The notes under the pieces were generated by a model. It had not been told where the DNA came from, did no database searches, and saw only the letters and a program-made list of their open reading frames with translations. Shown piece after piece: positions 35,537-63,900 of a stretch of DNA of 64,000 bases. Numbering within the stretch: position 1 is the first letter of the stretch; each line of letters starts with the position of its first letter. Made by a program: the position numbers and the translations under genes. This stretch comes from Myxococcota bacterium (GTDB taxonomy: Bacteria > Myxococcota_A > SURF-8): NCBI GenBank assembly GCA_965140415.1, contig OZ223209.1, positions 832,001 to 896,000 on the forward strand, given 5' to 3'.

Positions 35537-36592
35537 ATGGTAAGGACTGAATCTGTAATGAAAGCTAAAAAGGCTTATAAGAATATACATTTACTGTGGA
35601 TCTGCTTAATGGTGTTGTTGGGTGTCGTTCTTGTTGTTGGTCTTAAACAGTATTATTGCTGGTTTACAGGAACAGAATATCCTTTTAAAGACTTTCTAAA
35701 TAGCAATCCCTGGACACTTGTTACTGGATTGGCGGCTGTTCCCGCTTTGTTACTCACATGGTATTGGCGACAGAATAATCGCAGGGAAGATCTGGAGATC
35801 GCCCGTGATGCGCAATTGACCGATCGTTTTGCTACCGCAGTGAAATTACTGGGAGATCCCAGCATGGAGGTGCGCTTGGGTGGCATTTATGCCTTGGAAC
35901 GGATTTCCAGAAATTCACCCGATGATCACTGGTCCGTTGTTGAAACGCTGGCAGCTTTCATTCGGGAAAACGCACCGATTCGCAAAAAAAGCCATCCGGT
36001 TTCTCACCCATTCAATCTTGGTAGTGAAGCCTTACCGAAACCCGAAGAAAGGGTGAAACCCAGAACGGATATTCAAGCAGCGTTGACGGTGTTGGGAAGG
36101 CGATGGCATACGGAGGACGAAACTCCCGATCAAATCATCGATTTGAGCTATACGGATTTGAGCGGGGCGGATTTAAGAAAGACAACCTTTAAAAAGGCGA
36201 TTTTTATTGGTTCGAACTTGGAAAAAGCGGAAATGTCTGCAGCGAATTTGAGGAAAGCTGATTTTTCAGAATCAAGTTTGAAAAAAGCAAAACTTTTTGA
36301 CTGTAAGTTGTTTAATGCAAAACTTGAATATGTAAATTTTAAAGATGCCAGTTTACAACATGCAAATCTTGCAGCATCTCTCATCATTGGATCATATTTT
36401 CAGGGAACAGATTTGTATGATGTTGATTTACAGGCAAGTATTCTTTTTGGTAGCAATTTCGAAGGGTGCTCTCATTTGAAATTCGCCAAATTAGATGGCG
36501 CTCGTTTTTCTGTAACTGACAAGGTTTACCCAAGAACCATTTTTCCCCAAGGATTCGATCCAGATGAACAAAATATGAAAAGAGGCGATTAG
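35537..36592 (+). CDS. Membrane-anchored pentapeptide-repeat protein
   Basis: Two TM helices; RFATAVKLLG..VRLGGIYALERI; DIQAALTVLGRR; A(D/N)Lxx repeats. Visibly more AT-rich than the atp genes. Confidence 0.85.
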   Translation: MVRTESVMKAKKAYKNIHLLWICLMVLLGVVLVVGLKQYYCWFTGTEYPFKDFLNSNPWTLVTGLAAVPALLLTWYWRQNNRREDLEIARDAQLTDRFATAVKLLGDPSMEVRLGGIYALERISRNSPDDHWSVVETLAAFIRENAPIRKKSHPVSHPFNLGSEALPKPEERVKPRTDIQAALTVLGRRWHTEDETPDQIIDLSYTDLSGADLRKTTFKKAIFIGSNLEKAEMSAANLRKADFSESSLKKAKLFDCKLFNAKLEYVNFKDASLQHANLAASLIIGSYFQGTDLYDVDLQASILFGSNFEGCSHLKFAKLDGARFSVTDKVYPRTIFPQGFDPDEQNMKRGD

Positions 36593-36823: not shown

Positions 36824-37171
36824 ATGATGGAAATGCAATCCCTGGCATACTGTGGCCTCGACTGCTTCCAATGTCCGGCCTATCTGGCGACAAAAAACAA
36901 CGATGATCAACTGCGGGCAACGACTGCCGCCCAATGGTCGGCCATGTTCCAGGCAGAGATCAAGGCAGAGCAAATCAACTGCGACGGCTGCAAGAGCGGA
37001 ACGGAACGGAAGTTTTTCCACTGCTCGCAATGCGAGATTCGCTCCTGCGCGGAAGGGAAGAAATACGAGACCTGCGCCGAATGCGCCGATTTCGCCTGTG
37101 AGAAGGTGGCGTTTGTTGTGGACAACGTCCCGGAAGCCAAAGCGGCATTGGAAGCGCTTCGAAAAGCGTAG
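36824..37171 (+). CDS. DUF3795 family Cys-rich putative metal-binding protein
   Basis: YCGLDCxxCP, CDGCK, CEIRSC and TCAECADFAC motifs; AGGAG RBS. Confidence 0.85.
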   Translation: MMEMQSLAYCGLDCFQCPAYLATKNNDDQLRATTAAQWSAMFQAEIKAEQINCDGCKSGTERKFFHCSQCEIRSCAEGKKYETCAECADFACEKVAFVVDNVPEAKAALEALRKA

Positions 37172-37308: not shown

Positions 37309-37368
37309 AGGTTTTGCCCATCGATCCAATCGTCTAAATAAGATGGGCATGGCAAATGCCCATCCTAC
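37309..37368. repeat. REP doublet family 1, left arm truncated
   Basis: TTTGCCCATC...GATGGGCATGGCAAATGCCCATCCTAC. Confidence 0.75.
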
Positions 37369-37733
37369 TCTAGGCTTCTCCTCCCAGAATATGACCAAAA
37401 TCCGGGATTGAATTCCTACCGAAGTTCTGCGTTTTTTGTTTTCAACTGGTTCGAAATTCCCCACTTAAATCATTAACAATCTATTAAATAGAATTCATTA
37501 TTAAACAATATTTTGTAAATTTTATTGAAAATTTGCCGAATTTAGGTTAGAAATAAGAGAACGATTCTTGTCAGAGTGTGGTTGAGGCGTTTTTCCCTAC
37601 CAGGTGGGTTGCTATCTAAGGAGGGAAAAGCAAGCAAAAAAGGATCGATTTAAAGACTTATGAATAAATGCAGGGTGATTGCTGTAGTGTGTGCTGCGGT
37701 AGGTACCTTTTTGTATGCTAAGGAAAAACGTAT

Positions 37734-38786
37734 ATGAAAGCCGTAACCGTTATCGGGACGCGACCCGAAATCATCAAGATGGCTCCCCTGATTCCGTTGC
37801 TGGATGACAGCTTCGAACATACATTTCTCTTTACAAGCCAGCATTATTCCAGCAATATGGTCGAGATCTTTCTAAACGAAATGGGGGTTCGTCGTCCTGA
37901 CCGGTTTTTGAATGTGGCCGACAGCGATGTCAATAAGCTGGAGGCGGCCATTCGTCCGGCGCTAGAGGAACTGAACCCGAAATGGTTGTTGATTTACGGC
38001 GATACGAACTCGACGCTTGCGGCGGCTCGTGCGGCAGGACCGGATACGGCCATCGTGCATATCGAGGCGGGCATTCGCAGTTTCGATGAACGCATGCCAG
38101 AAGAGCGCAACCGTATCGAGACCGATGGTCTGTCCAAATGGCGGCTGGCGCCGACCGGACTGGCCAAGTATTTCCTTACGGACTACGAAGGCTACCCGGC
38201 TCAGAGCATCGAAGTGGTCGGGAATCTGGTGGTGGATGCCTACTACCGGAACCGGGATCGTATCCTGGCTGCTCCATTGCCTGAAGGTTTGACGGCGGGT
38301 CAGTATTGCCTGCTGACCATGCACCGGGCGGAGAATGTCGATGATCCGGAACGTTTGAAGGACATCATGGAAAGCCTGGCGCAGATTCCGATGACGGTGG
38401 TTTTCCCGGTGCATCCGCGCACCGAAAAACGAATGCGTGATTTCGGTTTGACGTGGCCCGAAAATTTGCGTACGTCAGAGCCGATTGGATACTACCCCTT
38501 CATGCGCATGATGGCTGACTGTTATGTGATTATCACCGATTCGGGCGGTGTGCAGGAAGAGGCGATTACATTGGGTGTGCCCTGTGTCACGTTGCGAGAC
38601 AACACGGAGCGCATGGAAACGGTGTTTTTGAAAGCGAACCAGTTATACGATGCGGCCCACCGACGCGACCTGCATGAGGTCGTGCAACAGATGGCCGGGC
38701 AGCGTGAGCGAATTCAGAAATTGACGAATCCCTTCGGCAACGGCGACAGCGCCGAGCGGATTCTGGCATTTTTACAGTCGCACTGA
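37734..38786 (+). CDS. wecB: UDP-N-acetylglucosamine 2-epimerase (non-hydrolysing)
   Basis: GTRPEIIK, HIEAGIRS..MPEERNR, TDSGGVQEEA, RDNTER and NPFGNG motifs. Confidence 0.93.
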   Translation: MKAVTVIGTRPEIIKMAPLIPLLDDSFEHTFLFTSQHYSSNMVEIFLNEMGVRRPDRFLNVADSDVNKLEAAIRPALEELNPKWLLIYGDTNSTLAAARAAGPDTAIVHIEAGIRSFDERMPEERNRIETDGLSKWRLAPTGLAKYFLTDYEGYPAQSIEVVGNLVVDAYYRNRDRILAAPLPEGLTAGQYCLLTMHRAENVDDPERLKDIMESLAQIPMTVVFPVHPRTEKRMRDFGLTWPENLRTSEPIGYYPFMRMMADCYVIITDSGGVQEEAITLGVPCVTLRDNTERMETVFLKANQLYDAAHRRDLHEVVQQMAGQRERIQKLTNPFGNGDSAERILAFLQSH

Positions 38787-38805
38787 ATCTGGGGAAGCGG
38801 GCACG

Positions 38806-40521
38806 TTGAAATTAAAGCAACGATTTTCGGCTAAGATTTCACTTGGTCTGGCTATGGGGCTGCTGGCCATGGTGGTATGGGCACTCTTGTGCTCGTCTCC
38901 CGCGCTGGCAGGCACGTCCAAATACGCCGTGCGTCAGTCCATCGAGCAGCGTTATAAGCTGGTTTCCGAAGGCTTCCAGGCGATGGAGCAGAAGGACTAC
39001 GACCGCGCGTCGCAGCTTTTCGATGATTCCTTACAGGTCTATCTGCCACCCGAGCAGGAAGAGAACGTTTCGCCTTCGCGGCTGGAGTTGCAGAAATACC
39101 ACTATTACTCGCTCAAGTCCGGTGGTCACGAGGAACTCTCCTATCGCAAGCTGCGCATGCTGGAGGACGTGTTCCCGCAAGACGAAGACATTCACCGCGA
39201 GTTGGGGTACTACTATCTCTCCAAATACGAGTTGCGCTATGCCCGCGACGAATTCGTGATTTTATGCGAGCGCAACCCGGAAAACCTGGATTACTGCCTG
39301 CAAAAAGCCTATCTCTACCTGCAATTGGGAGATAGTCCGGCGGCGATTGTGGCTTTCAGCGACATTCTGCACCACCATCCCGAGCATTCCGTCAGCCGCT
39401 CCGAGTATGCCTATTTGATGTTCGAAGCGGAGGATTACGAAGAGGCGGCCACGCAGTATGAGTTACTGCGCATGGAAGATCCGGAAAATCCCAAAACCTT
39501 GTTGATGCTTTACTATTGCTTCCGGCGTCTGGATCGCCCGGAAGATGCCAAGGAATACCTGCTGCATCTGTTGGAAATCCAGCCTTACCGCTGCGACTTG
39601 TGGATGGAGCTTGGCTATCTGTATTTCTCGCAGAAGGAATACGATCAGGCCGAGGAAGTCTTTAAAAAGGTCGAAAAAGACTGTGAAGACGAGGAAGTTC
39701 GAGAGTCGGCGAAGGCGGCGGCGGAAAATGTCGGGATCTCCAGACCCAAATGGTGGTTTGCCGATGTCTACGCGCATTCGTTCTTCACGGCGCGTTTCCC
39801 CAACCTGATCAACACGGGGCGGGCGCGTATCGGGCTGGTTCCCCCGCTTGTTCCGCTGAAGTTTTATCTTGGGTTGCGCCTGACGCGCGATATTCGCAGC
39901 AAAGGCGTTGCAACCGACAAGATCTACGAGGACAACGTGGGTATTCCGCATGTCGGTATGGATTTCACTCCGGGTGCGGACTTGTTCCCATACCTGACAC
40001 TCTTTTTCGAAATCGGACCGGCCATCTACTTATATGACCGAGATCCGCAGGATCAGGTCGTGTTGGATATGCGCGCCGGGGCGGCATTCGGCATCGATTG
40101 GCAGCAGAACGGACCGGTGCCCAATGCGGAAAAGAACTGGCTGGTGCCGTTGCAGCAGGATGATTTGTCGAAAGCGTTTTTCGGTGAATTGTATACGGAT
40201 CTGATCTGGTTCTACCGCTTCAACAATAACTGGATCGGGACTTTCCAGATCAAGGAAGGTATCAACCTGTTCCAGTATGGCATGCTGCTGGATCAGCTTT
40301 ACCTGCGGTTCAACTTGGGTTATGATGTCGATGGCGTTTTCTACAACAACTATGCGGAGTTGGGAGCAGGCATGAGGGTCATGCCCTGGGACTGGCTCGG
40401 TTTTCAGTTTTATGCAGAGTACATTCTCGGGTTTTACATTCCACGTACGAACTCGGGTAATCCGTACTCGACCGTGTACAACGATGGCCGCATCGGCGTG
40501 TTGTTTTCTCATTACTGGTAA
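38806..40521 (+). CDS. TPR plus C-terminal beta-barrel outer-membrane protein (NfrA/BcsC-like export porin)
   Basis: Signal peptide ending ALA-G; about 6 TPR-like repeats (ELGY..., P-D/E-N turns); aromatic-rich amphipathic strands ending in Trp. Confidence 0.75.
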   Translation: MKLKQRFSAKISLGLAMGLLAMVVWALLCSSPALAGTSKYAVRQSIEQRYKLVSEGFQAMEQKDYDRASQLFDDSLQVYLPPEQEENVSPSRLELQKYHYYSLKSGGHEELSYRKLRMLEDVFPQDEDIHRELGYYYLSKYELRYARDEFVILCERNPENLDYCLQKAYLYLQLGDSPAAIVAFSDILHHHPEHSVSRSEYAYLMFEAEDYEEAATQYELLRMEDPENPKTLLMLYYCFRRLDRPEDAKEYLLHLLEIQPYRCDLWMELGYLYFSQKEYDQAEEVFKKVEKDCEDEEVRESAKAAAENVGISRPKWWFADVYAHSFFTARFPNLINTGRARIGLVPPLVPLKFYLGLRLTRDIRSKGVATDKIYEDNVGIPHVGMDFTPGADLFPYLTLFFEIGPAIYLYDRDPQDQVVLDMRAGAAFGIDWQQNGPVPNAEKNWLVPLQQDDLSKAFFGELYTDLIWFYRFNNNWIGTFQIKEGINLFQYGMLLDQLYLRFNLGYDVDGVFYNNYAELGAGMRVMPWDWLGFQFYAEYILGFYIPRTNSGNPYSTVYNDGRIGVLFSHYW

Positions 40522-40530
40522 GCGGAATCA

Positions 40531-43500
40531 ATGGACGGTAACTGGTTGACAGGTTTGTTTGCTGCGATTTTCTCCGATGAGGTTTTCGGAGTGCTCGCAA
40601 TTATCGCTACCTGGGGATTTTTTATCTCCGGGCTTGATGACCTGTTCATCGATCTGCGCTATACGGTTGCCGCCGTTTTCAGCCGTAAGCCGGACCGAAT
40701 CCGCATGGCGCTGGCCGACAAGCATCCACAAAAGCCGATTGCCGTTATGGTGCCTGCCTGGCAGGAGGCCAACGTCATTCAGCAGATGCTGATGCGTAAC
40801 ATTGCCAATATCGACTACCTGAATTACCACCTGTTCGTAGGTACTTATCCCAACGATCAGGCTACCCAGGATGCCGTGGACCGTGCCATCGAGTTTTATC
40901 GGCGTATGCGCTTTAACGGCAAAGAAAATGGAAAGGGGCGTGTACATAAGGCGCCCATCGATTTCATTCATAAAGTGGTGACGGCAAGGCCCGGTCCTAC
41001 CAACAAAGCAGACAACCTGAATTGCGTGTTCGAGCATATCAAAAAGGTCGAGCGCGCGCTGCTGGACAAAGGGCATTTAAGTCAGCCCTTCGAAGTCTTC
41101 GTCATGCACGACAGCGAAGACGTGATCCATCCCAAGGAATTCAAGGTTTTCAACTACCTGATTTCGGATCGGCCCGAACGCGAGCGACCTCGCAACGAAA
41201 CCTTCTGCGAGCAGTTCGATTTCGTGCAACTGCCCGTTTTCCCGTTGGAAATCAGCATTATTCCCACTCGCGAACAGCGTTTGAAGCAGATCGAAGCCTG
41301 GGAACGATTTACCAAGGGAGGGATTTCCGTTAAGGTCAAGGAAACCCCGGTGGTGATGTACGAAACGATGCGGGCGGTTTCCACCTACTTCACGAACGTA
41401 TGGCGTTATTGCGTTTCTGCAACGTACATGGACGAATTCGCCGAGCATCACACCAAGGATATGGTGGTGCGGCGTGCCATTCGCGGCCTGGTGCCTTCGG
41501 CAGGAACCGGCACGGCGATGAACCGGCGCTCGTTACTGAAGTTAGAGGAGATGAACCCGAAAAAGTCCATCTTCAACGACATCCACTTGACCGAAGATTA
41601 TGAAATCAGCCTAGCGCTGAAGAATCTGGGCGCGAAGCAGTTCTTCCTGGTCGAGCCGGTGCGTATGGAGAAATATCGCGGCGGACGTATGGATCTGATC
41701 ACCGAAGAAGACGAGTTCGTCGCCACCAAAGAATATTTTCCGGACTCCTTCCAGAAGGCGATTCGCCAGAAATCGCGCTGGGTTATGGGTATTACTTTCC
41801 AGACCATGTTCCCCGGTAAGAGTAAAAACCTGCTGGTGGACTTTATGAAGGGCTGGGAAGGCAATATGGTCACGAAGTACACGCTGCTGCGCGACAGAAA
41901 GTCGCTGGTGACCAACTACATTAATATGTTGGGTTACATCGTTTTCATTTACTGCGTGGCGCGACTTTTCATGGTGGAAGTGTACGATGACGATTGGTCC
42001 TTCTCCAACATCTTCCCGCCCAACTCCGTGTTGTGGTGGCTCTTGTTGTTCAACATCGTCGTCATGGTGGAGCGCTACCTGCAACGTTACCACGCCATCA
42101 GCAAGATTTACGGTGTTAAACAGGCGGTTTACTTCCTGATCCGATCGATCACCTTGGTCGGTTTGTTCCTGGGTAACTTCATCAACTTCGTATCTACCTT
42201 AAGCGCGACCAAGCGCTATTTCAGCTATGTCTGGCAGGCGTTATTGGATCGCTTGTTCCCCAAACGCAAAACGAAGACAGTGGTGCGCAAAACCGCAGAA
42301 GGCACGGAAGAAACCGTCGTGACGCGCAAAAGCGCCGAACCGGCCTGGGGCAAAACCGACCACAGTTATCTGTCCGACGAGCAGATGCGGGAATACGTCA
42401 ACCGTATCGGGCAATTGGCCATGCGTACGCGACTGATGCAGGTGGAAGAGTTGGAAGAGGCCCTGCGGCGGCAACGGGAAGAGCATCAGCGGTTGGGTGA
42501 AATCCTGAAAAACATGGGTGTTGTCGATGATGTCGGGTTTTCCATGTTGTACGCTCAACAGCTTTCCGTACCCATGCATGAAATCGATTTCTTCCAGGTC
42601 GATCCGGAGGTGCTGAAACAGGTGCCGGAGAGTATCGCCTCGGAGTTCGGACTGGTTCCGCTGTTCATCGATGAAGGTGGAAACCTGATCGTGGCGGTGA
42701 GTGAACCGATACACGAGGACAACCGGCGACGCATCGAGCAACGGCTGGGCAAGCCGGTCAAGTTTGTTATTACGTACCAGTCGGATATTGAATTCTCGCG
42801 CCAGCGCGCCTATGGTCACATGGTGCAACGTCAGGCATCGCAGATTCCCAAGTTAGGTATTCTGCTGTTAGGCCAAGAGGCGGTAACGGAAAAACAATTG
42901 GGCGAGGCGCTCAAATTGCAACGTGAAAAGCGCCAGCCGCTAGGCCGCATTTTGGTGCAGATGGGCGCCATCGACAAGGAGACGCTTTCTCAGGCGCTTT
43001 TCAAGCAGAAGCAGTCTCGCTTGACTTTGGGTGAAAGCTTGCTTGAAAAGGGGCGTATCAATTACGACCAGTTGCAGCAGGCGCTTTACCAGCAGAAAAT
43101 CAATCGCAAGCCGCTAGGTGAAATCTTGTTGGAAATGAAGGCGGTTGATGAAAGTGACCTGGACGAGTTCTTCCGCGCTACCTTGAACATCGGCTATCGG
43201 GATATACGTCCCGAAGAAATCGATTTCGGAGTACAACAGCGGTTCTCCCCGGCTTTTTGCCGCATTTACCGCACGATACCGATCTGTCAAAGCGAGGATG
43301 GTGAAGTCGTCACGTTCGCCTTGGCGACGACTGCGGTGCGCGGTGCGATTGCGAGCCTGGAAGAACGTATGGGATTTACGGCGGAAGTATTCCTTGCGCC
43401 GGAAGCGAGTATCCGCAAAGCGATCGAAACCTGTTTCGACAAACTGGATGTGGTTACTCAGCAAGCCCACTTACTGGGAAATCGTCTGGTGGCGGAAGGA

Positions 43501-43938
43501 ATCATCGACGAGCACATCCTGCAAGAGGCGCTCAAGCAGCATCGCGAAGAAGGCTCGCGACTGGGCGAGGTGCTGGTCAACTATGGCTACTGCGACGAAG
43601 AGAGCTTCTTGGAAGTGTATTCCGGCGTGTTACAGTTGCCGGTAATCGAGTTACACCGCGACGAGGTGGACCCGTCGCTTGCGCCGACATTCATGTATAT
43701 GGAGGCGGTCAACCGAACCGTGGCGCCGGTGGCGCAGGATGGCGACACGTTGACCTTTGCGCTGCCGTTCGATTTCAAGGTGGAGGATATCCGCTTTATC
43801 GAGGAGCGCTTCCCCAATATGCGGCTTTCTTATGTATTGGCGAAAAAAGAAGATATCCGACGCGTGATCAGCGCTATCTATACTCCCGGTGGCCGGCATG
43901 AAATGACGAGAAGCGAGGAACGCCTGGCTGCAACATAA
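40531..43938 (+). CDS. nfrB: NfrB-like processive GT2 polysaccharide synthase with expanded MshEN domains
   Basis: PAWQE, GTYPND, PTNKADNLN, HDSED, YMDEFAE, VPSAG, LTEDY and RQKSRW match the NfrB motif series; TM helices; about 8 xLGxxL MshEN motifs. Confidence 0.88.
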   Translation: MDGNWLTGLFAAIFSDEVFGVLAIIATWGFFISGLDDLFIDLRYTVAAVFSRKPDRIRMALADKHPQKPIAVMVPAWQEANVIQQMLMRNIANIDYLNYHLFVGTYPNDQATQDAVDRAIEFYRRMRFNGKENGKGRVHKAPIDFIHKVVTARPGPTNKADNLNCVFEHIKKVERALLDKGHLSQPFEVFVMHDSEDVIHPKEFKVFNYLISDRPERERPRNETFCEQFDFVQLPVFPLEISIIPTREQRLKQIEAWERFTKGGISVKVKETPVVMYETMRAVSTYFTNVWRYCVSATYMDEFAEHHTKDMVVRRAIRGLVPSAGTGTAMNRRSLLKLEEMNPKKSIFNDIHLTEDYEISLALKNLGAKQFFLVEPVRMEKYRGGRMDLITEEDEFVATKEYFPDSFQKAIRQKSRWVMGITFQTMFPGKSKNLLVDFMKGWEGNMVTKYTLLRDRKSLVTNYINMLGYIVFIYCVARLFMVEVYDDDWSFSNIFPPNSVLWWLLLFNIVVMVERYLQRYHAISKIYGVKQAVYFLIRSITLVGLFLGNFINFVSTLSATKRYFSYVWQALLDRLFPKRKTKTVVRKTAEGTEETVVTRKSAEPAWGKTDHSYLSDEQMREYVNRIGQLAMRTRLMQVEELEEALRRQREEHQRLGEILKNMGVVDDVGFSMLYAQQLSVPMHEIDFFQVDPEVLKQVPESIASEFGLVPLFIDEGGNLIVAVSEPIHEDNRRRIEQRLGKPVKFVITYQSDIEFSRQRAYGHMVQRQASQIPKLGILLLGQEAVTEKQLGEALKLQREKRQPLGRILVQMGAIDKETLSQALFKQKQSRLTLGESLLEKGRINYDQLQQALYQQKINRKPLGEILLEMKAVDESDLDEFFRATLNIGYRDIRPEEIDFGVQQRFSPAFCRIYRTIPICQSEDGEVVTFALATTAVRGAIASLEERMGFTAEVFLAPEASIRKAIETCFDKLDVVTQQAHLLGNRLVAEGIIDEHILQEALKQHREEGSRLGEVLVNYGYCDEESFLEVYSGVLQLPVIELHRDEVDPSLAPTFMYMEAVNRTVAPVAQDGDTLTFALPFDFKVEDIRFIEERFPNMRLSYVLAKKEDIRRVISAIYTPGGRHEMTRSEERLAAT

Positions 43939-44029
43939 GGGAGTGGGTGCGAAGAATAGAGGGACAAAGGACAACCGAAACGGTTGCATTCGGACGATAC
44001 AGGGCGAAAAAGGAATAGCGAGGTGGACG

Positions 44030-46330
44030 ATGCGAAAAACAAACACAACGGGAAGGCTCCTGGGGCTGGTGCTTGCACTGATGCTCGTGCTCGGCAGTCT
44101 TCCGATTGCCGAGGCTGCTGAAACAGCCAGAATCGAGGGGCGTTATTACAACGGGCGCGCACCCAGTATTCAGAAACTGGAAGAGCCGCGTTGGGGCGTT
44201 ATCGATTTGGAAGAGCACCTGTTTATTGCCAAAGACCTGACGTTGAACGGTATCGCAGGTTACTATCGGCTTGATTTCTCGATTCCGAGAACCTGGAAGC
44301 CGGTGGATGGTAGCAAGCTGGAGCTGGTTTTGTCGCATAGTCCTTCCTTGATTCCCGCGCTCAGTTCCGCGCGCGTGATTCTGAACGGTACCGTGATTTA
44401 CACGGTGCGACTGGACGAGGGAAATCAACTCGCCACCAAGTACATCATCGAAATTCCGACGGATCAGCTGAAGGAATTCAACGCCCTGGAATTGGTTGCG
44501 AATCAGCACTACATGATCGAGTGCGAGGATCCGTTCGATCCGACGTTGTGGACGGCTGTGTCCAAGAACAGCAAAATTCACGTTCATTATCGTCCCGTGG
44601 CTCCGTTTGTGGACCTGGCCGCTTATCCCTACCCGATTTTCGACGAGTGGGATTTCTCGCGCACCATGTTGCACTTTGTGTTGCCTTCGCAGCCTTCCGC
44701 CCAAACGCTGCGTTCGATTGCCCGTTTGCAGGTCGCCTTGGGGCGTCAGATCAACTGGCGCAAAGTCGATTTCGATGTCACTACCGTAACACCGACAACT
44801 TATAATGGACATACGGTGCTGGTGGGAACGCCGGATGAGAACCCGGCCATCATGGCCTTGATGGATCTACCTCCGGAAAAACAGTTCCCATTGATGTTGG
44901 AACGCGGGCGCGGGTTCTCCACCCCAGGCGGAACCCGTGTGGGCGACAGCGAAGGTGTGTTGATCTTTACCTATCATCCTGAAAATCCTGATCTTTCCTT
45001 GCTGATCGTTTCGGGTAACACGCCCGCCGGTGTCGAGAAAGCCATCGAAGCCTTGGCGGTGCTCCCCTACGAGCGTGGCATCAACGGTCAGGCGCTGGTC
45101 GTGCAGAGCGTGCAACCGCGCCCGCAAGTTGAGGAACGTATAAAGGAAACCCACATTCCTTTGAAAGACGAGTTTACACTTGAAGAGATCGGCTTCGATG
45201 ATTTGACCGTACGCGGTTTCTATGCCTCGCCGATTATGTTGGATCTGCTGGAACATGCGGATGCGCATCCCGTCGATTTCAAGCAGAAATTCAAGCTGGT
45301 GTATTCCTACGGCGCACAGTTGCAGAACCGCTTGTCTTCGTTGGAAATCGTGTTCAATGGAGTCTCGATCGGGTCGAAAAACCTGAACAATCCCGAAGGT
45401 GAAAACCTGGCCGAACTGACGGTGGATATTCCGGCACGATTGATTGCGCCGCACAACCGCCTGGTCATCCGTTTCCACCTGTACCCGGACAACTTCTTCT
45501 ATTGTGGCCGCACCGGCGACCGGCATCTGTGGGCGACCGTACACAAGACCTCTACACTTACCATGCCGCGTAACTTCTACACCCATCTGCCGGATCTGGG
45601 ACTGTTACGTTACGAATGGTTCCCCTACACGATGTATCAGGATTTGCAGCAGACCACGATTGTGGTGCCCGATCATCCCAGTGCAATGGACTGGGCGGGC
45701 TTGTTGACCGTTTCCAACGAACTGGGTCGCGCCACCATTTCCGATGGCATTCTGCTGGATGCTTACACCTTCTCCAACCTGCCGAGTGAAGCGAAAGCCA
45801 ACGATCACCTGATCGTGATCGATTCCAGCCCGAGCGCGGAAGTGGTTAAGAAACTGGTTGGAAATACAAGGCTCTACTACAATTCCGAAACCAACCGCGT
45901 GATGAAGACCATCGAAGACCGCGAGCTGAAATCGATCCATTTCGCCACGGCGGGTATCATCGAGCAGATTGTGTCCCCGTTCAACGAGGAACGCACGGTG
46001 TTGTTGCTGCGCGGACAGGATGACGAATCCTTGAAGCAGGCGTTGGAATCGGTTGCCGATCCGGCCAAGCGCGCCAAACTGGAAGACAACCTGGCTTTCG
46101 CCTATTCGGATGAAAACCTGAAATCGGTGAAAACCGCAGATAAAAAACTCTTTGGAAAACTGCCGGTTAAAGAAGAAACGCAACGCTGGGTTTACTTGAA
46201 TTTCTGGCAGACGGCGTTATTGATCATCGTCGCCTTTATCCTGATTTACATCATCGTGGCCGTCATTCGTCTGATTGCCCGCCGCCGCCGTGAAAGCCGT
46301 CGGAGAATCAGCGATAAAGATCTTAGATAA
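44030..46330 (+). CDS. BcsB-like periplasmic co-polymerase
   Basis: Signal peptide; two repeats of a beta-sandwich plus alpha/beta module (DLAAYPYPIFD; FTLEEIGFDDLTVRG; LPDLGLL..FPYT); C-terminal TM helix followed by RRRR. Confidence 0.8.
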   Translation: MRKTNTTGRLLGLVLALMLVLGSLPIAEAAETARIEGRYYNGRAPSIQKLEEPRWGVIDLEEHLFIAKDLTLNGIAGYYRLDFSIPRTWKPVDGSKLELVLSHSPSLIPALSSARVILNGTVIYTVRLDEGNQLATKYIIEIPTDQLKEFNALELVANQHYMIECEDPFDPTLWTAVSKNSKIHVHYRPVAPFVDLAAYPYPIFDEWDFSRTMLHFVLPSQPSAQTLRSIARLQVALGRQINWRKVDFDVTTVTPTTYNGHTVLVGTPDENPAIMALMDLPPEKQFPLMLERGRGFSTPGGTRVGDSEGVLIFTYHPENPDLSLLIVSGNTPAGVEKAIEALAVLPYERGINGQALVVQSVQPRPQVEERIKETHIPLKDEFTLEEIGFDDLTVRGFYASPIMLDLLEHADAHPVDFKQKFKLVYSYGAQLQNRLSSLEIVFNGVSIGSKNLNNPEGENLAELTVDIPARLIAPHNRLVIRFHLYPDNFFYCGRTGDRHLWATVHKTSTLTMPRNFYTHLPDLGLLRYEWFPYTMYQDLQQTTIVVPDHPSAMDWAGLLTVSNELGRATISDGILLDAYTFSNLPSEAKANDHLIVIDSSPSAEVVKKLVGNTRLYYNSETNRVMKTIEDRELKSIHFATAGIIEQIVSPFNEERTVLLLRGQDDESLKQALESVADPAKRAKLEDNLAFAYSDENLKSVKTADKKLFGKLPVKEETQRWVYLNFWQTALLIIVAFILIYIIVAVIRLIARRRRESRRRISDKDLR

Positions 46331-46362
46331 GTCGAGAGACTCATTGCATTAGGTCATTTTGG

Positions 46363-46399
46363 GCGACGGTTCCTCTGGCAGGAGCCGTCGCTTTTTTTT
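46363..46399 (+). terminator. Intrinsic terminator of the EPS operon
   Basis: GCGACGGTTCCT...AGGAGCCGTCGC followed by T8. Confidence 0.85.
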
Positions 46400-46571
46400 C
46401 GGTGATGCTTCACGTTGTTTCGTGGTGTAGCGTACTGCATTTTGGAATATCACGACGCAACTTTTCGCTTGACGCAAAGTGAGAAAATCCGCGTTTTTCC
46501 CTCATTTTTTCCTTGATTTTTGCTGCTTGCTGACTACAATATTTTTGCATCTAGGTCTGGTGTTGAGATCA

Positions 46572-55146: not shown

Positions 55147-58100
55147 GTGATTCGTCTGGATGAAGCTTCAATCTACCGAAAACTGGGAATTAAAAAAGCC
55201 TTTGTTTTTATCCTGCTCTTTCTGTCATTTTGTATGATCCCAACTGCTGCACAGGCAGAATCCAAGAACATCTTGATTTTGCATTCCTATCACAAAGGTC
55301 TTTCCTGGACGGACAGCCTGTCCAGTGGTTTGGCCGAAGGTCTGTCCGAAAGATCGGATTTGGTCATTCACAACGAATACCTGGACTCCAAGCGCTATCC
55401 ACAAGTCGATCAAATGGAAACGATGGCTCGTTTTCTTAAATCCAAATACCGGGACATTCGTATCGATATCCTGGTTCTGGTCGACAATAATGCATTGACG
55501 TTTATATTGGAGCGGCGTTCCACACTTTTCCCGAACGTACCGATTGTTTTTGCCGGTATCAATGGTTTTTCTGACGGCATGATTGCCGGTCAGAAAAATA
55601 TAACAGGGGTACTGGATGAAACGGAAGGTTTGGAAACCCTAAAAATCGCTTTGCAGTTACACCCACAAGCGAAAGCGATTCATGTTATCCACGATCGAAC
55701 CGTCACCGCTCTTTTGGAACGCAAGCGACTTCAGAATCAACTCGCCGAATCTCCGCTGGACAAGCCGATTCGTTATTATAGCAACATGGACACTTCTGCC
55801 CTGTTGCAAGAGGTCAAGCGAATTCCAGCATCGGATATCGTTCTTCTCATTGCCTGGAACCGAGATAAACTTGGGCACTATTATGATTATGAAGCAAGCT
55901 CGGAATTGATAACCAAGGCAAGCCAGGCCCCGGTTTTTGCTCTTTGGGACTTCTATTTAAATTATGGTGTCGTCGGCGGAAAGATGGTTCACGCCAGAAC
56001 TCAGGGGCTATCAGCCGCCAAGCTTATCCTACGAGTTTTGGAGGGACAATCCGCCTCTTCCCTGCCGATTATTCGGGATAACCAAAATCGCTTGCTGTTT
56101 GATTTCAGACAACTCCTCCTGTTTGGCATTGATAAAAAGCTGCTTCCAAAAGGCAGCATGGTTTTGTTCGATCCCATGGACTATGACCCGACGAAAATGC
56201 AGGATCATCCGTCTACCTACCGAATCGGCGTACTGGCCAATCGGGGCGAAACCGATTGTCTGAAACGATGGCATGCTACTGCGGACTATTTATCCAGGAA
56301 CATCAAAAACTCACATTTCAAGATCGTTCCTTTGGATTTTGACGATTTACTCACTGCGGTAAAGGATCGTACGATTGACTTTGTTTTAACGAATCCCGTT
56401 CATTATATCGAACTGGAATATGAATACGGCATTCGACGTATCACAACCATCGTCAGTCAAATGGGGGACACACAAACCGTCTTTTTTGGTGGAGTGATTT
56501 TCACCCGGTCGGATATGGCCAATCTTTTTGAACTTAAAGATTTAGTCGGGAAACAATTTGCAGCTGTAGATGCCTCCTCCCTGGGAGGATGGCTTGCGGC
56601 AAAAGTTGAATTGAAGCAAAACGGCATCGATGCAGAAAAAGACTTTAAGACTTTATCCTTCGGCGGTTCACATTATGCAGTAGTGAATGCCGTACTTGGC
56701 GGGGAGGCGGATGCGGGTACCGTCCGAACGGACACGCTGGAACGTATGGCGAAAGTTGGCAAGATTCAAATGTCGGACATACGCGTCCTAAATCCTAAAA
56801 GCCACATGACATTTCCATTTGTTCATTCTACAGCACTTTATCCGGAATGGCCGTTTGCCGCACTTTCACATGTTCCACTAAAGATCATGTCCCTTGTTGC
56901 TGCCGCACTGATGAATATCGATAGCAACGACAAAGCCGCGACAGATGCCCAAATTGCAGGTTGGACTGCACCATTGCATTACGAGAGCGTAAGCTCATTA
57001 CTTAGGAATGTCCGCTATGGACCATTTCGCGATTATGGCAAAGTCTCGATGTGGGAGGTGATCAAGCAAAATTGGTTAGCCGGAGTGTTTGCGATTGCCT
57101 TGTTGATGATTCTTCTTGTTTTCTCGATTCGCTTGACCATTTCGAATCGAAATCTGATGCATACCACGGATGAATTGAAGACAAGCCGTGAGCAGTTCAT
57201 GCTTGCGGTAAATGGATCGCAAGATGGAATCTGGGATTTGGATCTTCGTACAGATGTCTTGTTTCTTTCCAGCAAATGGAAAGAGATGCTTGGGTATCGC
57301 GACGACGAATTGGCCAATCTGTATAAATCCTTACTTGATAATATTCATCCGGATGACATAAAGCCCTTTAACGAAAATCTGGATGACTATCTAAGAGGAA
57401 AAAAAGATCGATATTCCATTGAATTTCGGATGAAGCACAAAGATGGTCACTATGTGGACATTCACTCGCGCGGAGAGGCGATTCGCGACGAAGAGGGACG
57501 CCCATATCGAATGGCAGGGTCGCATACGGACATCTCCGAGCGTAAAAAGGCAGAAAAGGCGCTTGAGGAAAATGAAGCCCGCCTTGCCGCCATTACCAAT
57601 GCCGCTCAAGATGCCATTATCATGATCGATACCGATGGGAACGTCGCCTTTTGGAATCCATCTGCGGAAAGTATTCTGGGTTACAGAGCAGAGGAAATGA
57701 TCGGTAAGAATTTTCATGAAATCATCGCGCCCAAGAAATACCTTGCGGCTCACCATTCTGCATTTCAAAAATTCAAGAAGTCCGGTCAAGGAGATGCAGT
57801 AGGAAAAACACTGGAACTGGAAGCCATTCGGAATGATGGAAAGGAAATCTCCGTTTCGTTATCGCTTTCATCCGTGTTGATTGAAGACCAATGGCATGCA
57901 ATCGGCCTAATTCGGGATATTTCGGATCAGAAGCGCGCTCAAGCGCAATTGTTAGAGACGAATCGCCAATTGGAAAACGCCAATATTGAGGCCCATGAAT
58001 TGGCAATGAAAGCTGAAGTGGCCAATACGGCAAAGAGCCAGTTCCTTGCGAACATGAGCCACGAAATCCGTACACCAATGAATGCCGTTGTGGGTATGGC

Positions 58101-59997
58101 GGACTTGTTACTGGATATGGATCTTTCGCAACGGCAGCAGGAATACGTTTCGGTAATCGCGAAAAGCGCGGATTCGCTTTTAAGCCTGATCAATGACATC
58201 CTGGATTACTCCAAAATCGAGGCCGATCGGCTGGACATCGAAGAAATCGAATTCAACTTGAGAACCTTGGTAGAGGATATTAGTGATATTGTTGCCATTA
58301 GAGCCTATGAGAAGCGGCTGGAATTTGTTAGCTTCCTGCCGCCAGAAGTTCCAACCCGATTGATTGGAGATCCTGGGCGACTTCGGCAGATTCTTACAAA
58401 TCTGGCCAACAATGCGGTAAAATTCACGAATGAGGGAGAGGTCTCCATTCATGTTCGTGCGGTAGAACAAAACGATCCAAATGTCCTGCTTCGGTTTGAC
58501 ATTCGCGATACCGGCATTGGCCTGTCTCTCTCGGAAAAGGAAAAGTTGTTCCAGCCGTTTACTCAGGCGGATTCTTCTACCACGCGACGTTTTGGTGGGA
58601 CGGGGCTTGGTCTTTCGATCTCCAAGCGGTTATCCGAATTGATGGGAGGAGAAATCGGGGTGGATAGCCAACCTGGCCATGGCTCAACGTTCTGGTTTAC
58701 CGTGCGCATGAAAATGCAAGCGGATCAGCCTCCTGATAAAATGGAACAACTTCCAGGCGACATTCGATCGGTTCGTATTCTCGGAGTTGACGACAACGAT
58801 TCCAATCGTATGGTGCTACAAGCGATGCTGGAATCCTGGGATTGTCGATTTGAGATCGTAGAAAACGGTACAGAAGCGCTGCGTCGTTTGGAAGAAGCTC
58901 AACTGAAAAACGATCCTTATGGGATCGTCTTGCTGGACATGGCAATGCCCGATGTGGATGGCGCGGAGATCGGAAGAACTATTCGCAATTCCACGAATAT
59001 GGGAAATCCCATCCTCGTAATGTTGACTTCAGTGGGGCGCAAAGGGGATGCTGCGATATTGAAAGACATCGGATTCAATGCGTACCTTACCAAACCCATT
59101 AAGCGCTCCCAGTTGTTTGATTGCCTAGTGACAGCTATCAGTGAAAACAATATAGATGGAAAACAGCCAAAGACAGACAAACTCATCACGCGGCATTCTT
59201 TGGCCGAAAAGAAAACGTATGAGATGAAGGCGCTGTTGGTGGAGGATAACCCATTCAATCAAATGGTTGCACAGGAAATTCTTGGGAAAATGGGGTTCAC
59301 TGTGTCTACAGCGGATAATGGGAAGATCGCGGTCGAACGACTTTGCAACAACCGTTTCGATTTAGTATTCATGGATATGCAAATGCCGGAAATGGATGGG
59401 CTGGAAGCAACTCGTCTGATCCGTTCGGAGGCTTCCTCTGTTCTGCAACATGATATTCCAATTATCGCGATGACCGCCAATGCAATGAAAGGCGATAGGG
59501 AAGCTTGCATGGAAGCTGGCATGGATGACTATCTCTCCAAACCGATTAATAAAGGAGAGCTTAAGCATATTATCAATAAAGTCATAGAGAAAACGAAACG
59601 GGCCCACAAGCAGCCTAATGGATTAAACCAAGAGAATACCTCTCTGGTAGAAGATTCGTTGTTTGACGAAAGTGCTTTGTTGGAGCGTTTAAGTGGGGAT
59701 GAGGAATTGATGCGAACAATCTTGACGGCTTTTGTTGAAGATGTGGGCGCTCAGATTCAGAAATTGAAAGATCTATTCGAAACGACTGATTTGGTAGCGA
59801 TTAAACGCCAGGCTCATTCGATCAAAGGTGCCGCCGGCAATGCAGGTGCGATGGCGCTCTACGAAATGGCACTGAAAATCGAAAATTACATGAAGGATGG
59901 CGACAGCGATAAAGCCTATGAATCTTTTAATGGGCTGACAAATGAATTCGAACTTGTGGTTCACCTTTTAGAAAAGAAAGGCTGGATCAATGCTTGA
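55147..59997 (+). CDS. Hybrid sensor kinase: two periplasmic binding-protein domains, TM, 2 PAS, HisKA, HATPase, 2 REC, Hpt
   Basis: [12 protein letters not shown]-type sensor; PhnD-like domain ([20 protein letters not shown]); [25 protein letters not shown] and [14 protein letters not shown]. Confidence 0.92.
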
Positions 59998-60934
59998 CAA
60001 CAAAGCAGATCGATTGGAAATCGTCATAGCGGAAGATGACCTCACGTCTCGTATGGTCATGGAAGGATTCGTCGCCAAACTGGGTTACAAAGCGCTTCTG
60101 GCTGAAAACGGCATGCAGGCTTTGCAGATATTGCAGCAACCCGATGCCCCGATGCTGGCGTTGATCGACTGGGAAATGCCGGAAATGGACGGCTTGGAAG
60201 TGATCAAGACACTTCGTTCCGACAATGATGATTTGTTTCGATATTTGATTATGTTGACAGGTAAAAGCGCCCGAGATGAAATCATCGAAGGCATCAGGCA
60301 AGGTGCGGATGATTACATTACCAAGCCATTTGACAGCAAGGAACTGGAAGTTCGCATTCGTGCCGGGCAGCGGATAGTCGATCTGCAAAGGCAACTGCTC
60401 GATGCCAATAGAAAACTTGATGAATTGGCACAAACGGATGAGCTTACCGGTTTTTACAATCGTCTTGCCTTGCATCGCAATTTAAAGCGTCAATTTGAAG
60501 AGACGGAGTATTCTCCACCTCCTGCCACTTTCATTATGGTCGATATCGATCATTTTAAAAGGGTTAATGACAATTTCGGTCATGATGCCGGGGATGCTGT
60601 CTTGAAGCAATTCTCCAAGCGGGTAAAGAAACTTCTTCGCATAGGAGACATCGTTTGCCGAATGGGCGGGGAAGAGTTTTTGATCATTGCCCCCGAAACC
60701 GATGAAACAATGGGAGAAAAGGTTGCACAGCGTGTGCTCCTTACTACAGGTGAAACTCCATATGAGCTTTCCGATGGACAGCGAATTACTGTAACCTGTA
60801 GTCTGGGCGTTTATACGGCTAGTGTCAGTCACACTAATGAGAATTTCGATGAACAGATCAAGAAGGCAGATGCTGCTTTATATCAATCGAAAGAAAACGG
60901 TCGAAATCGTGTAACCGTGTATCAGGAATCTTAA
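59990..60934 (+). CDS. REC-GGDEF diguanylate cyclase response regulator
   Basis: AEDD..DWEMP..KPF receiver; DIDHFKRVNDNFGHDAGD; RIGD I-site; GGEEF active site. Confidence 0.93.
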   Translation: MLDNKADRLEIVIAEDDLTSRMVMEGFVAKLGYKALLAENGMQALQILQQPDAPMLALIDWEMPEMDGLEVIKTLRSDNDDLFRYLIMLTGKSARDEIIEGIRQGADDYITKPFDSKELEVRIRAGQRIVDLQRQLLDANRKLDELAQTDELTGFYNRLALHRNLKRQFEETEYSPPPATFIMVDIDHFKRVNDNFGHDAGDAVLKQFSKRVKKLLRIGDIVCRMGGEEFLIIAPETDETMGEKVAQRVLLTTGETPYELSDGQRITVTCSLGVYTASVSHTNENFDEQIKKADAALYQSKENGRNRVTVYQES

Positions 60935-60948
60935 GTTCGGAAAGTACT

Positions 60949-63900
60949 ATGTCAGTAACCAATGAGGTCAAGGCACATATTGTCATTGTAAATGATACTC
61001 CCTTCCAGCTAAGAATGATGCGTTCCATTCTTGAAAAGGAAGGGTATGCCGTCGATTGCTTCGAAAGCGCAGAAGAAGCGCTTGCGCAAATGACGAAGCC
61101 AAGTGACAACGTACCGCATTTGATCGTCACGGATCTCCATATGCCTGGTATCGATGGCTGGCGCTTTTGCCGATTGTTGCGCTCGCCGGAATATAGGCAT
61201 TTAAACGAAGTTCCGATTCTTATTAATTCGGCTACATTCGCCGGAGAAGATACGAAGACGATTTCCGATCAAGCTGGAGCAAACGCTTTTCTGGGATCTC
61301 CCTATAAGGCTGACGATCTGCTACGCTTCGTTCGGGAACTTATTTCTGGAGGAACGCCGTTTATCAAGTCTCGGTTACTGATCGTGGAAGACAGTAAATC
61401 GCTGGCGAACAATCTAGGGCGTGTGTTGAATGAAGTCGGTTTCGATATTCAAGTCGCTTATGATGGAGACAGCGCTCGTAAAATGTTCAAGGCTCACAAG
61501 CCGGAAACGGTGATACTGGATCATCACCTTCCAGATTCCACTGGTATGCAACTGTTGCAGGAATTCGAAGTTGTCAATCCGTTGGCGGTATATATCATGG
61601 TTACGGGGGATGAAGAACCGGAACTGGCGGTACAAGCCATGAAACTGGGGGCCAGCGCCTTCGTTCGCAAGCCCTGTTCTCACGATTACCTGATTGAGAT
61701 CATACGCAAGGCACATCGGGAAAACAGCCTGTTGGCAGTAGAACGTTTACTAGAAAAACGTACCCAGACTTTATTGGAACAAGAACGCAGGCACAAAGCT
61801 GCCATGGATGCCGCTCACGAAGGCTTTTGCATTTCAGTCGATGCACAACTTCGCTACGTTAATCCCGCGTTTTCACAAATGATAGGCCACCCAATTGAGC
61901 AAGTGATCGGTACAAGTCTATTCGATTATGTGGAGGAAGGGGACCGGGCTGAATTAATGGAAGTCTATCGTTCCTACCAGCGCGGAGATAGGTCGATCAA
62001 ATTACAGCGAGTTCGCTTGAAGACAAACCAGAACGACCATTGTCTTGTCGAAGCATCCGGCAGCCGAATTTATTATGAAGGTGAGCAAGCGCTTTTATGC
62101 GTCGTACGGGACATAACCGAGACTCATCGAATGCGCCAGGAAATGGAACATTCTCTGCGCGAAAACGAGCAACGCTTTCGCTTGGCGGCGGAAAGCAGTT
62201 CGGATGTGGTTTATGAATGGAATTATCAAACCGGGAAACTTTCCTGGTTCGGTGATTTACAGAAACTTCTGAATATAGAAAAGCTACCTGAAAGGATAGA
62301 AGAGTTATCCGGATTCATCCACCCTGAAGATCGAGAAAGGATAATCAGTACAACGAGAGCAGGTATTGCAAACCATACTCGCTGGCAAGAAGAATACCGT
62401 ATCATCGATGGCACAGGAGCTATTCGCTATTGGTATGCAACCGGGAAAGGATTTTATTCGTCGTCGGGAGACATGCAACTTGTTATCGGTAGCGTACAAG
62501 ACATTACGGAAAGGAAACGGATAGAAGAGGATCTCCGTTTCAAATCTCTGGTACTCGATCAGATTACGGATCATGTTACAGTTACCGACTTAAATGGCAT
62601 CATCACGTATGTCAATCAAGCTCAATTAGAGCTTTTTGGAAAATCCGAAGAACAGATGATCGGACAATCCATCCATAGTTTCGGAGAAGATCCGAATTGT
62701 GGCGCGACTCAACGAGAAATTGTCGACCAAACCAAACAAAACGGCCACTGGCGCGGCGAAGTGGTTAATTACTCCAATGATGGAGAAGCGCACATTATGG
62801 ATTGCCGTACACAGTTGGTTCATGACAAACAAGGCAGACCGATCGCGCTTTGCGGAATTGCGACCGATATTACGGAAAGTAGGAAAATCACATCTGCTTT
62901 ACAGGAAAGCGAAAGTCGTTATAGGCTGGTTGCCGAGAATGCCAGCGATAATATCTGGATTCTCTCGCTGGAATCGATGTGTTTCACCTATATCAGTCCA
63001 TCCATTGAAAAACTTTTCGGCCATTCCATTGAGTATGCAATTGAAACCCCATTAGAAGGGCACATGACGCCGGAATCATATGAAATCATTGTAAATGCCC
63101 TGGCGGAAGAGTTGGCCAGGGACAACGATCTTACCTTGGAGCGGGATCGCTCTCGCGTGTTTGAGTTGGAACAGTACGTTCATGATGGAGGAACGATCTG
63201 GACGGAGGTGACGGCATCCTTTGTTCGAGATGACGACGGGAATCCTATCAGTGTGTTGGGCATTACTCGAGACATCAGTGACCGGAAGCGCGCTCAGGAT
63301 GCCCTGAGTCAAAGCGAACAGAAATTCCGATCCATTGCCGAGCAATCCTCGGATTTGATTGCCCTGCTCGGTCAGGAGGGACAAATCCTATATGCTTCTC
63401 CAATCTCCACAAGTATGTTTGGGATTGAACCGGAAGACATGATTGGACTGCACTATAGTCTGTTTTTGCTGGACCAGGATATTGCATTGGCGGCTGCCGC
63501 TTTAGAAGACACAATTCTTAAGCGCCAAAGAATCAAGAGTTTGGAACTTAGGATGAAGCGAAAGGACGGTAGTTCCTTTTTCGGAGAGGTCAATAGTTCT
63601 CCGCATAAAACAGGCGATCAAATTGGATCGCTCATCATGATTCGGGACATCAGTGAACGCAAAGCTGCGGAGAAGGAGAGGGAACGTCTGGAACAACAGC
63701 TAATGCAGTCGCTGAAAATGGAAGCGATCGGGCGCCTTGCCGGCGGCGTCGCCCATGACTTCAATAATCTCCTTACCGGGATATCCGGTCATGCTTCTCT
63801 GGCGATGATGAGCTATTCCGACATACCGGATCTTATGGACTCATTACAGGAAATTAGCGAAGCGACCAATCGAGCAGCGGGATTGACGCGCCAACTTCTG

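Follow-up and report, generated by a model that had tools for sequence, protein, structure and literature searches.

An NfrB-clade synthase operon with a BcsB-family subunit in a Myxococcota bacterium, and its likely association with an unlinked DUF2334-CotH protein

What does an operon that joins an NfrB-like glycosyltransferase (GT) to a BcsB-like subunit make, and are its four genes enough to make it? The question is raised by positions 37,734 to 46,399 of a 64,000-nucleotide (nt) stretch of contig OZ223209.1 from a Myxococcota bacterium; this whole stretch is called the window, and coordinates are positions in it unless a genome contig is named. The genome carrying the operon (G000) is 94% complete. 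A sequence-only reading of the window had proposed a self-contained and undescribed system for a polymer containing N-acetylmannosamine (ManNAc). In our view, the operon rather likely directs the cyclic di-GMP (c-di-GMP)-activated synthesis of an Nfr-type polymer, probably containing ManNAc, that would be guided by BcsB, served by an unlinked DUF2334-CotH partner and exported by a tetratricopeptide repeat (TPR)-barrel protein. Every biochemical step in this reading is inferred; what the analysis shows is the identity of the genes, the integrity of their motifs, the folds predicted for them, and patterns of linkage and of co-occurrence. The four genes are as follows (aa, amino acids).

37734..38786, + strand: wecB, non-hydrolysing UDP-GlcNAc 2-epimerase, 350 aa (TIGR00236, PF02350, motifs)
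38806..40521, + strand: putative exporter with signal peptide, TPRs, predicted 12-stranded outer-membrane beta-barrel and C-terminal Trp, 571 aa (TPR families, AlphaFold2, profiles)
40531..43938, + strand: NfrB-clade processive GT2 synthase, 1135 aa (BLAST, tree, motifs, structure model)
44030..46330, + strand: BcsB-family periplasmic co-polymerase with signal peptide, conserved Cys pair and C-terminal membrane anchor, 766 aa (PF03170)

These open reading frames (ORFs), flanked by the ATP synthase operon and rimP-nusA-infB, all run along the + strand and are closely spaced, as had been noted from the sequence, with gaps of 19 nt (wecB/TPR-barrel), 9 nt (TPR-barrel/nfrB) and 91 nt (nfrB/bcsB). 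The identities first given to them, namely wecB, TPR-barrel, NfrB-clade GT and BcsB, are all borne out.

In the synthase, all five motifs of the NfrB series listed by the sequence-only reading were located (GTYPND at 104, HDSED at 193, DEFAE at 301, LTEDY at 353 and RQKSRW at 412). BLAST aligned the protein with Escherichia coli NfrB (30.7% identity, E 5e-108) and gave no match to BcsA or PgaC, and in a tree of 23 selected rows the NfrB clade that includes it has a support of 100, so that its grouping with NfrB rather than with BcsA or PgaC is upheld. E. coli NfrB residues D169, D267, W330, L490, G491 and G519 correspond to D194, D356, W417, I626, G627 and G656, and the catalytic and c-di-GMP-site residues mutated in the E. 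coli NfrB papers are retained, except for L537, which is Y674 here. Residues 1-612 comprise the GT and membrane helices and are followed by three MshEN domains, which also appear in the model (predicted local distance difference test score, pLDDT, 90.5) together with a lineage-specific helical hairpin insert at 247-292. The MshEN profile NF053729 matches in 4 stretches (161 bits), and eight half-motifs, following the motif definition in PMC5013675, lie at 625, 654, 774, 803, 832, 861, 981 and 1010; eight are reached in 2 of 120 homologues, whereas 56 of the 120 have four. Arg is absent at the start of five of the eight half-motifs, and the first half-motif of E. coli NfrB likewise starts with Pro. 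Because the first MshEN domain keeps Arg-x-Gly in both halves, it is the best candidate for binding c-di-GMP. An assembly slip as the source of the extra 58-aa MshEN pair was rejected: the DNA of the repeat units is 36-53% alike, and homologues P0009 and P0013 have the pair too. A same-family relative (G001) carries a low-GC gene for a 582-aa NfrB lacking MshEN (L030:9072-12743), accompanied by a TPR gene and not by bcsB, and this short NfrB groups with the window's synthase at a support of 91.

The protein encoded from 44030 is a full-length BcsB by sequence, as anticipated, since it matches PF03170 over positions 11-606 of 606 (335 bits) and the solved E. coli BcsB chains (E 6e-24), with Cys165/Cys492 conserved in the alignment and a hydrophobic C-terminal helix present. 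A longer frame from GTG 43943 exists, and the database copy has 766 aa. This is the sole BcsB in the genome, which gave no match to CelA/BcsA (TIGR03030), and because bcsA is without a match there, NfrB is the likeliest partner of BcsB. A complex prediction for NfrB 8-614 with BcsB 380-760 gave no answer (score 0.01, mark 0.32) and is not used as evidence.

The assignment of wecB stands as well, with 276.5 bits against TIGR00236 (cut-off 210.15), a PF02350 match and the motifs GTRPE, HIEAGIRS, PEERNR and DSGGVQEE; ManNAc as the product sugar is suggested by this family membership. For the 571-aa protein (alternative start possible at ATG 38854), the proposed porin with an NfrA-type C-terminal barrel was upheld as to the barrel and only distantly as to NfrA. 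No Pfam family covers the C-terminal domain, NfrA_C included, and a direct hidden Markov model search with the NfrA barrel did not match the protein. A search over 1.84 billion representatives found 270 relatives of the domain, and 105 of the best 150 of these 270 were aligned for AlphaFold2, which modelled residues 309-571 as 12 strands (pLDDT 93.1). By fold, the domain comes closest to outer-membrane barrels, namely PcoB (Z 11.8, root-mean-square deviation 3.8 over 190 aligned residues), autotransporter barrels and sugar porins such as VhGalP, KdgM and NanC; these searches list no NfrA structure and hence are not informative on likeness to NfrA. Profile-profile comparison matched the barrel to NfrA C-termini at 93% (E 3e-7) in an alignment of 140 columns, whereas the controls BcsC and PgaA reached 0.5% and 0.3%. 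Because the barrel profile matches NfrA C-termini and not BcsC or PgaA, the protein is read as a compact, putative distant relative of NfrA.

The gene-neighbourhood survey for nfrB, bcsB and wecB confirmed that the arrangement recurs. In a phylum sample of 401 genomes, the NfrB-like model matches 26 and BcsB 61, and bcsB lies directly 3' of nfrB in 13 of these 26, one of them with the pair divided between contig ends; G005, on a short contig, is a fourteenth, bringing the nfrB genomes to 27 and those with nfrB and bcsB to 14. Wherever a genome of this sample has both genes, bcsB is immediately downstream of nfrB. The exact order wecB-barrel-nfrB-bcsB is found again in G015, G036 and G196 and at metagenome locus L087, and Variovorax paradoxus CP063167 is annotated as wecB-bcsB-GT-nfrA. 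Among the best 80 of 548 metagenome nfrB loci, many on clipped contigs or near-duplicates, BcsB is found at 7 (6 of these with WecB), WecB beside nfrB at 48, DUF4434 at 33 and DUF2334 at 20. Five loci of WOR-3 type read nfrB-bcsB-DUF2334, whereas the short NfrBs of family f12 are without BcsB and are accompanied instead by DUF2334 and a canonical NfrA_C.

Further features of these operons were seen in passing. A lone receiver-domain gene follows bcsB (nfrB in G188) in operons of families f10, f33 and f41, not in the family of G000; it is seen at L031, L032, L038-L046, L087 and L090 and is usual after the recurrent wecB-barrel-nfrB-bcsB order. In the WOR-3-type loci (L020, L022, L024-L026), a small Rieske-domain gene comes before nfrB, and L025 has two tandem DUF2334 genes. 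The f12 operons (L033-L037, L050-L053) run GH113-wecB...DUF2334-nfrB-nfrA, without BcsB, and some f12 genomes have two or more operon copies, often beside an FGE-sulfatase-domain gene. In G261 (L042/L170), the order is nfrB-bcsB-receiver-cotH-barrel, with CotH embedded between core genes.

Are the four genes enough? The ORF list and the Pfam search agree with the sequence-only reading that no hydrolase or modifying gene lies within the operon, and a search of G000 for a modifier gene found a fusion gene 4.25 Mb away; a second, separate operon is listed with it.

G000:C1:5128773-5131985: DUF2334-CotH lipoprotein-like fusion, 1071 aa (PF10096 and PF08757)
G000:C1:4413836-4417835 (L167:8836-12836): DUF4956-HlyD-TolC-VTC operon, followed by two insertion sequence (IS) 4-family transposases

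The DUF2334 domain of the fusion matches PF10096 (140 bits) and shares 31% identity over 502 aa with the DUF2334 protein inside f12 nfr operons. It retains the motifs RFED, HGYTH and PHY, which may be CE4-like deacetylase motifs, and the sequence search found no relative of solved structure for it. The other part is a domain of the CotH family, a predicted kinase: it matches PF08757 over 1-322 of 322 (165.5 bits), and the alignment matches the spore-coat kinase 5jd9 (E 1.4e-37). The fusion is 58-66% identical to its G002 orthologue, which is also on a contig apart from the operon. Of the 401 genomes, 22 have the DUF2334 subfamily, namely 21 of the 27 that carry nfrB against 1 of the 374 that do not, and the CotH subfamily is found in 11 of the 14 with nfrB and bcsB against 11 of the 387 others; both counts overstate the association through kinship, because nfrB is restricted to five families. 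The DUF2334 subfamily sits inside the nfr operons of f12 and WOR-3, and the nfr operons of G003 and G005 stand head-to-head with DUF4956-HlyD-TolC-VTC-DUF2334(-CotH), CotH being cut by the contig end in G003. CotH is within or adjoining the operon in G005, G121, G136, G261 and G381 (three families), and it lies beside DUF2334 in G081, G196 and G361; the CotH beside nfrB in G188 is of another subfamily (19% identity) and was excluded from the adjacency count. In three to four families, the evidence from linkage, from fusion and from co-occurrence is thus in agreement. Since the DUF2334-CotH gene tracks nfrB and is operon-linked in relatives, the self-containment claimed for the four genes is doubtful. 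The case for the DUF4956-HlyD-TolC-VTC operon is weaker, and it may belong to the nfr system: among 78 hand-picked genomes, DUF4956 is found in 26 of the 27 with nfrB against 18 of the 51 without. A literature search with little subscription coverage found no paper linking CotH to NfrB and none on DUF2334 and exopolysaccharide.

Other genes came to light in the same genome. An unlinked GH8 gene was set aside as the missing hydrolase, being a partial match 3.8 Mb away with unrelated neighbours. A second lipoprotein of the same CotH subfamily (G000:C1:385586-387349, L168:7586-9349) is 47% identical and adjoins a lysylphosphatidylglycerol-synthase-like membrane gene. A DUF6929-like domain (C1:4674 kb, L169:8072-9202) is apart from HlyD in G000 and fused to it in G003 and G005.

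How, then, could the parts work together? WecB would make UDP-ManNAc, as expected from its family, and c-di-GMP, once bound by the MshEN tail of NfrB, most plausibly by the first domain, would turn the GT on, as in E. coli NfrB. The synthase would polymerise a ManNAc-containing chain and move it across the inner membrane; BcsB, with its anchor next to NfrB, would lead the polymer through the periplasm, and export would fall to the TPR-barrel protein, both roles being suggested by homology and operon order. In the periplasm, the unlinked DUF2334 domain would probably de-N-acetylate part of the polymer, or else the fusion may act on the machine; CotH may modify the glycan or regulate the machine, a kinase step there being unexplained.

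Several observations weigh against this account. The synthase is below both NCBIfam NfrB/PRK15489 equivalog cut-offs (NF012033, 479 against 537 bits; NF008411, 458 against 1170 bits), its inserts breaking the matches into 5-6 stretches. Three further full-length WecB-family genes lie elsewhere in G000, the wecB orthologue is on a separate contig in the same-family relatives G003 and G005, and no wecB orthologue above 38% identity was found in G002. G003 and G005 have degenerate DUF2334 motifs, matches are absent in 6 of the 27 nfrB genomes for DUF2334 and in 3 of the 14 nfrB and bcsB genomes for CotH, neither CotH nor VTC was matched at the best 80 of 548 metagenome loci, and the confinement to five families and the presence of DUF4956 in 18 genomes without nfrB, both given above, count on the same side. 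No motif common to the DNA upstream of wecB, DUF2334-CotH, DUF4956 and the second cotH stood out above 200 shuffles. The six genomes without DUF2334, the missing upstream motif and the lack of a modifying gene in the operon would suit four self-contained genes making an unmodified ManNAc polymer, the DUF2334-CotH and VTC genes being former neighbours that are no longer involved; the two IS4 transposases standing after VTC where G003 and G005 have DUF2334(-CotH) fit such a cluster break-up. However, the fusion gene is intact and has motifs of catalytic type as well as the stated identity to its G002 orthologue, and a single genome lacking nfrB has the DUF2334 subfamily, so that we hold this explanation to be rather unlikely.

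It is also improbable, in our judgement, that the polymer is of another sugar (a glucan or GlcNAc-containing), with BcsB from a cellulose operon and wecB a passenger. BcsB indeed shares more identity with BcsBs linked to BcsA (up to 35%) than with others linked to NfrB (25-27%), which also tells against the account preferred here, and a 27-row tree, obtained from 44 rows by removing 17 (long branches, near-duplicates and rows of unknown context), places it among the BcsA-linked BcsBs (Shimodaira-Hasegawa-like approximate likelihood-ratio support 99). The unlinked wecB of G003 and G005, lineage-specific GT inserts near the acceptor or interface region and a Nfr polymer that is chemically undefined even in E. 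coli are in keeping with this alternative. Yet the GT is firmly within the NfrB clade, the wecB-barrel-nfrB-bcsB order is repeated in three further genomes and at L087, the operon is without bcsZ, and one origin of NfrB-linked BcsBs is not rejected (approximately unbiased test, p-AU 0.112); as the 44-row tree leaves the placement open, separate recruitment of BcsB from cellulose operons is not claimed. That BcsB is a co-transcribed relic or the partner of another GT, with NfrB working alone, appears very improbable: E. coli NfrB needs no BcsB, 73 of the 80 metagenome nfrB loci lack a BcsB profile match (many contigs being cut short), and G188 has a long NfrB without bcsB, but BcsB here is of full length, its same-family copies share 49-54% identity, in the phylum sample it always comes directly after nfrB where both are present, its genome has no BcsA match, and phage adsorption in Acinetobacter requires pgrD, a gene for a protein of BcsB fold (PMC12507263). 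The c-di-GMP-activated, BcsB-guided Nfr-type system with a DUF2334-CotH partner is thus the reading we prefer.

The DNA bordering the operon contains two further features.

37376..37733, + strand: AT-rich upstream region, probable promoter or regulatory DNA (core 37426-37575, 26% GC)
46361..46400, + strand: intrinsic-terminator-like hairpin of 14 pairs with T tract (terminator scan)

The AT-rich region reported earlier was confirmed: its 150-nt core is the GC minimum of the window, and GC as low as 26% occurs in 4 of 39,838 non-overlapping 150-nt segments genome-wide. A sigma-70-like site at 37473-37501 (9/12 match) is not above chance, promoter matches overall being at chance level, and the sigma-54 pattern was not found in the compared upstream regions. 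The single terminator proposed for the operon has a counterpart in the hairpin after bcsB, called at 46361-46393 by the scan, whose 14-pair stem is the longest among 18 matches in 35-49 kb, although their number is in no excess over chance (16.3 +/- 4.2). The four genes have a GC content at third codon positions (GC3) of 0.66-0.69, against 0.65-0.69 for atp and nusA; because these values are the same, the operon is taken to be long resident, and a recent horizontal arrival was rejected. The closest named relatives carry the label Myxococcales bacterium, in line with a lineage far from enterobacteria. Among three contig sets from one study, one contig spans 37340-46500 with zero differences, and it may stem from the source sample. 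Directly upstream of the AT-rich region, a short palindromic repeat with a 9-bp stem hairpin (37311-37370) has 27 BLAST matches genome-wide, itself included; it resembles repetitive extragenic palindromes or miniature inverted-repeat transposable elements, and assembly contigs break there. Between the atp operon and wecB lie a membrane-anchored pentapeptide-repeat gene (35537-36592, 42% GC, GC3 0.38) and a DUF3795 gene (36824-37171), which were likely acquired separately from the operon. A low-GC signalling block (55147-64000), preceded by a short ORF at 53976 that is presumably an IS200-like transposase, encodes a 1616-aa hybrid histidine kinase, a receiver-GGDEF protein (59990-60934) and a receiver/PAS kinase. 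A candidate source of c-di-GMP is the receiver-GGDEF protein, encoded 14 kb away from the operon; a profile search gave 13 GGDEF matches in G000.

Chemically, the Nfr polymer, which serves as a phage receptor, has yet to be defined, and it is evident that synthase-dependent systems are assembled from mixed modules. The present locus offers a compact and intact test case for BcsB working with an NfrB synthase and for several MshEN domains tuning one enzyme. The four-gene combination alone is ordinary, and the added value lies in the DUF2334-CotH fusion and the VTC/DUF4956 link, which give a direct handle on the role of CotH beside exopolysaccharide operons, a question left open in PMC7112168. 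One might imagine a phosphorylation module in which polyphosphate from VTC, or a related donor, is carried across the envelope by DUF4956-HlyD-TolC, and DUF2334-CotH deacetylates and then phosphorylates the emerging mannosamine polymer; we think this unlikely, but if true, CotH would be a glycan kinase outside the cytoplasm, and the unexplained trio beside Gram-positive pel operons would be accounted for.

Comparison with known systems places the operon closest to E. coli Nfr in its presumed working and NfrB clade, without YbcH, a canonical NfrA or equivalog-level scores. Both it and the E. coli system, NfrB-NfrA-YbcH with WecB/NfrC, which makes the N4 glycan receptor (PMC8669469, PMC8669472), have an NfrB-clade GT2 with DxD/TED/QxxRW and MshEN, a TPR-barrel exporter and WecB supply. 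In contrast to the 745-aa E. coli NfrB, the synthase here has 1135 aa with three MshEN domains, the exporter is of 571 aa without an NfrA_C Pfam match, BcsB is present, wecB is in the operon and DUF2334-CotH is a candidate partner. YbcH (DUF4434, PF14488), reported as non-essential in E. coli Nfr, had no match in G000. Compared with cellulose BcsA-BcsB-BcsZ-BcsC, the BcsB subunit, the TPR-barrel exporter logic and the GT2 fold are similar, whereas BcsA/PilZ is lacking here, BcsZ is not in the operon and the barrel is unlike BcsC. In the Listeria monocytogenes Pss system, a separate protein, PssE, is the c-di-GMP receptor. PssA-E (PMC4125290, PMC6307706) combines a GT2 with the BcsB orthologue PssD and makes a beta-1,4-ManNAc polymer with the deacetylase PssB under c-di-GMP control, in a Gram-positive cell lacking an outer-membrane barrel and with a GT termed IcaA/BcsA-like; it may thus be regarded as a precedent for a BcsB orthologue serving a ManNAc polymer with a deacetylase.

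Closer assemblies are in print for Gram-negative bacteria. General nfrB-wecB linkage and NfrB in delta-proteobacteria are described in PMC8669469, and Achromobacter xylosoxidans has nfrA, nfrB and wecB in a cluster with a BcsB homologue (PMC8669472), that is, the same four components in a different order with added O-acetyltransferases. The Variovorax cluster likewise has the four components in another order, with a highly divergent BcsB (PF03170, 30 bits) and an exporter with NfrA_C. Acinetobacter baumannii PgrA-G (PMC12507263) combines a GT2, the BcsB-fold PgrD, the WecB-like PgrF and the porin PgrG; the BcsB-fold and WecB-like genes are required for phage infection, pgrD and pgrF mutants resisting phage StAb3 until complemented. 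Because PgrC is 17% identical to NfrB and PgrD 9% to BcsB (structural alignments, its Table S5), this is a more distant assembly, which also has the YbcH/PgaB-like PgrE and for which the available section makes no mention of MshEN. Since Achromobacter, Acinetobacter (with its more distant GT) and Listeria provide these precedents, the claim that the combination is undescribed fails. In Gram-positive pel clusters (PMC7112168), the same cotH/polyphosphate polymerase/DUF4956 trio stands beside an exopolysaccharide operon, its role unexplained there; here, in contrast, the synthase is of Nfr type, the cell is diderm, HlyD/TolC-like genes are added and CotH is fused to DUF2334. The four-gene mix itself is therefore not new, and the DUF2334-CotH/VTC link is the new part.

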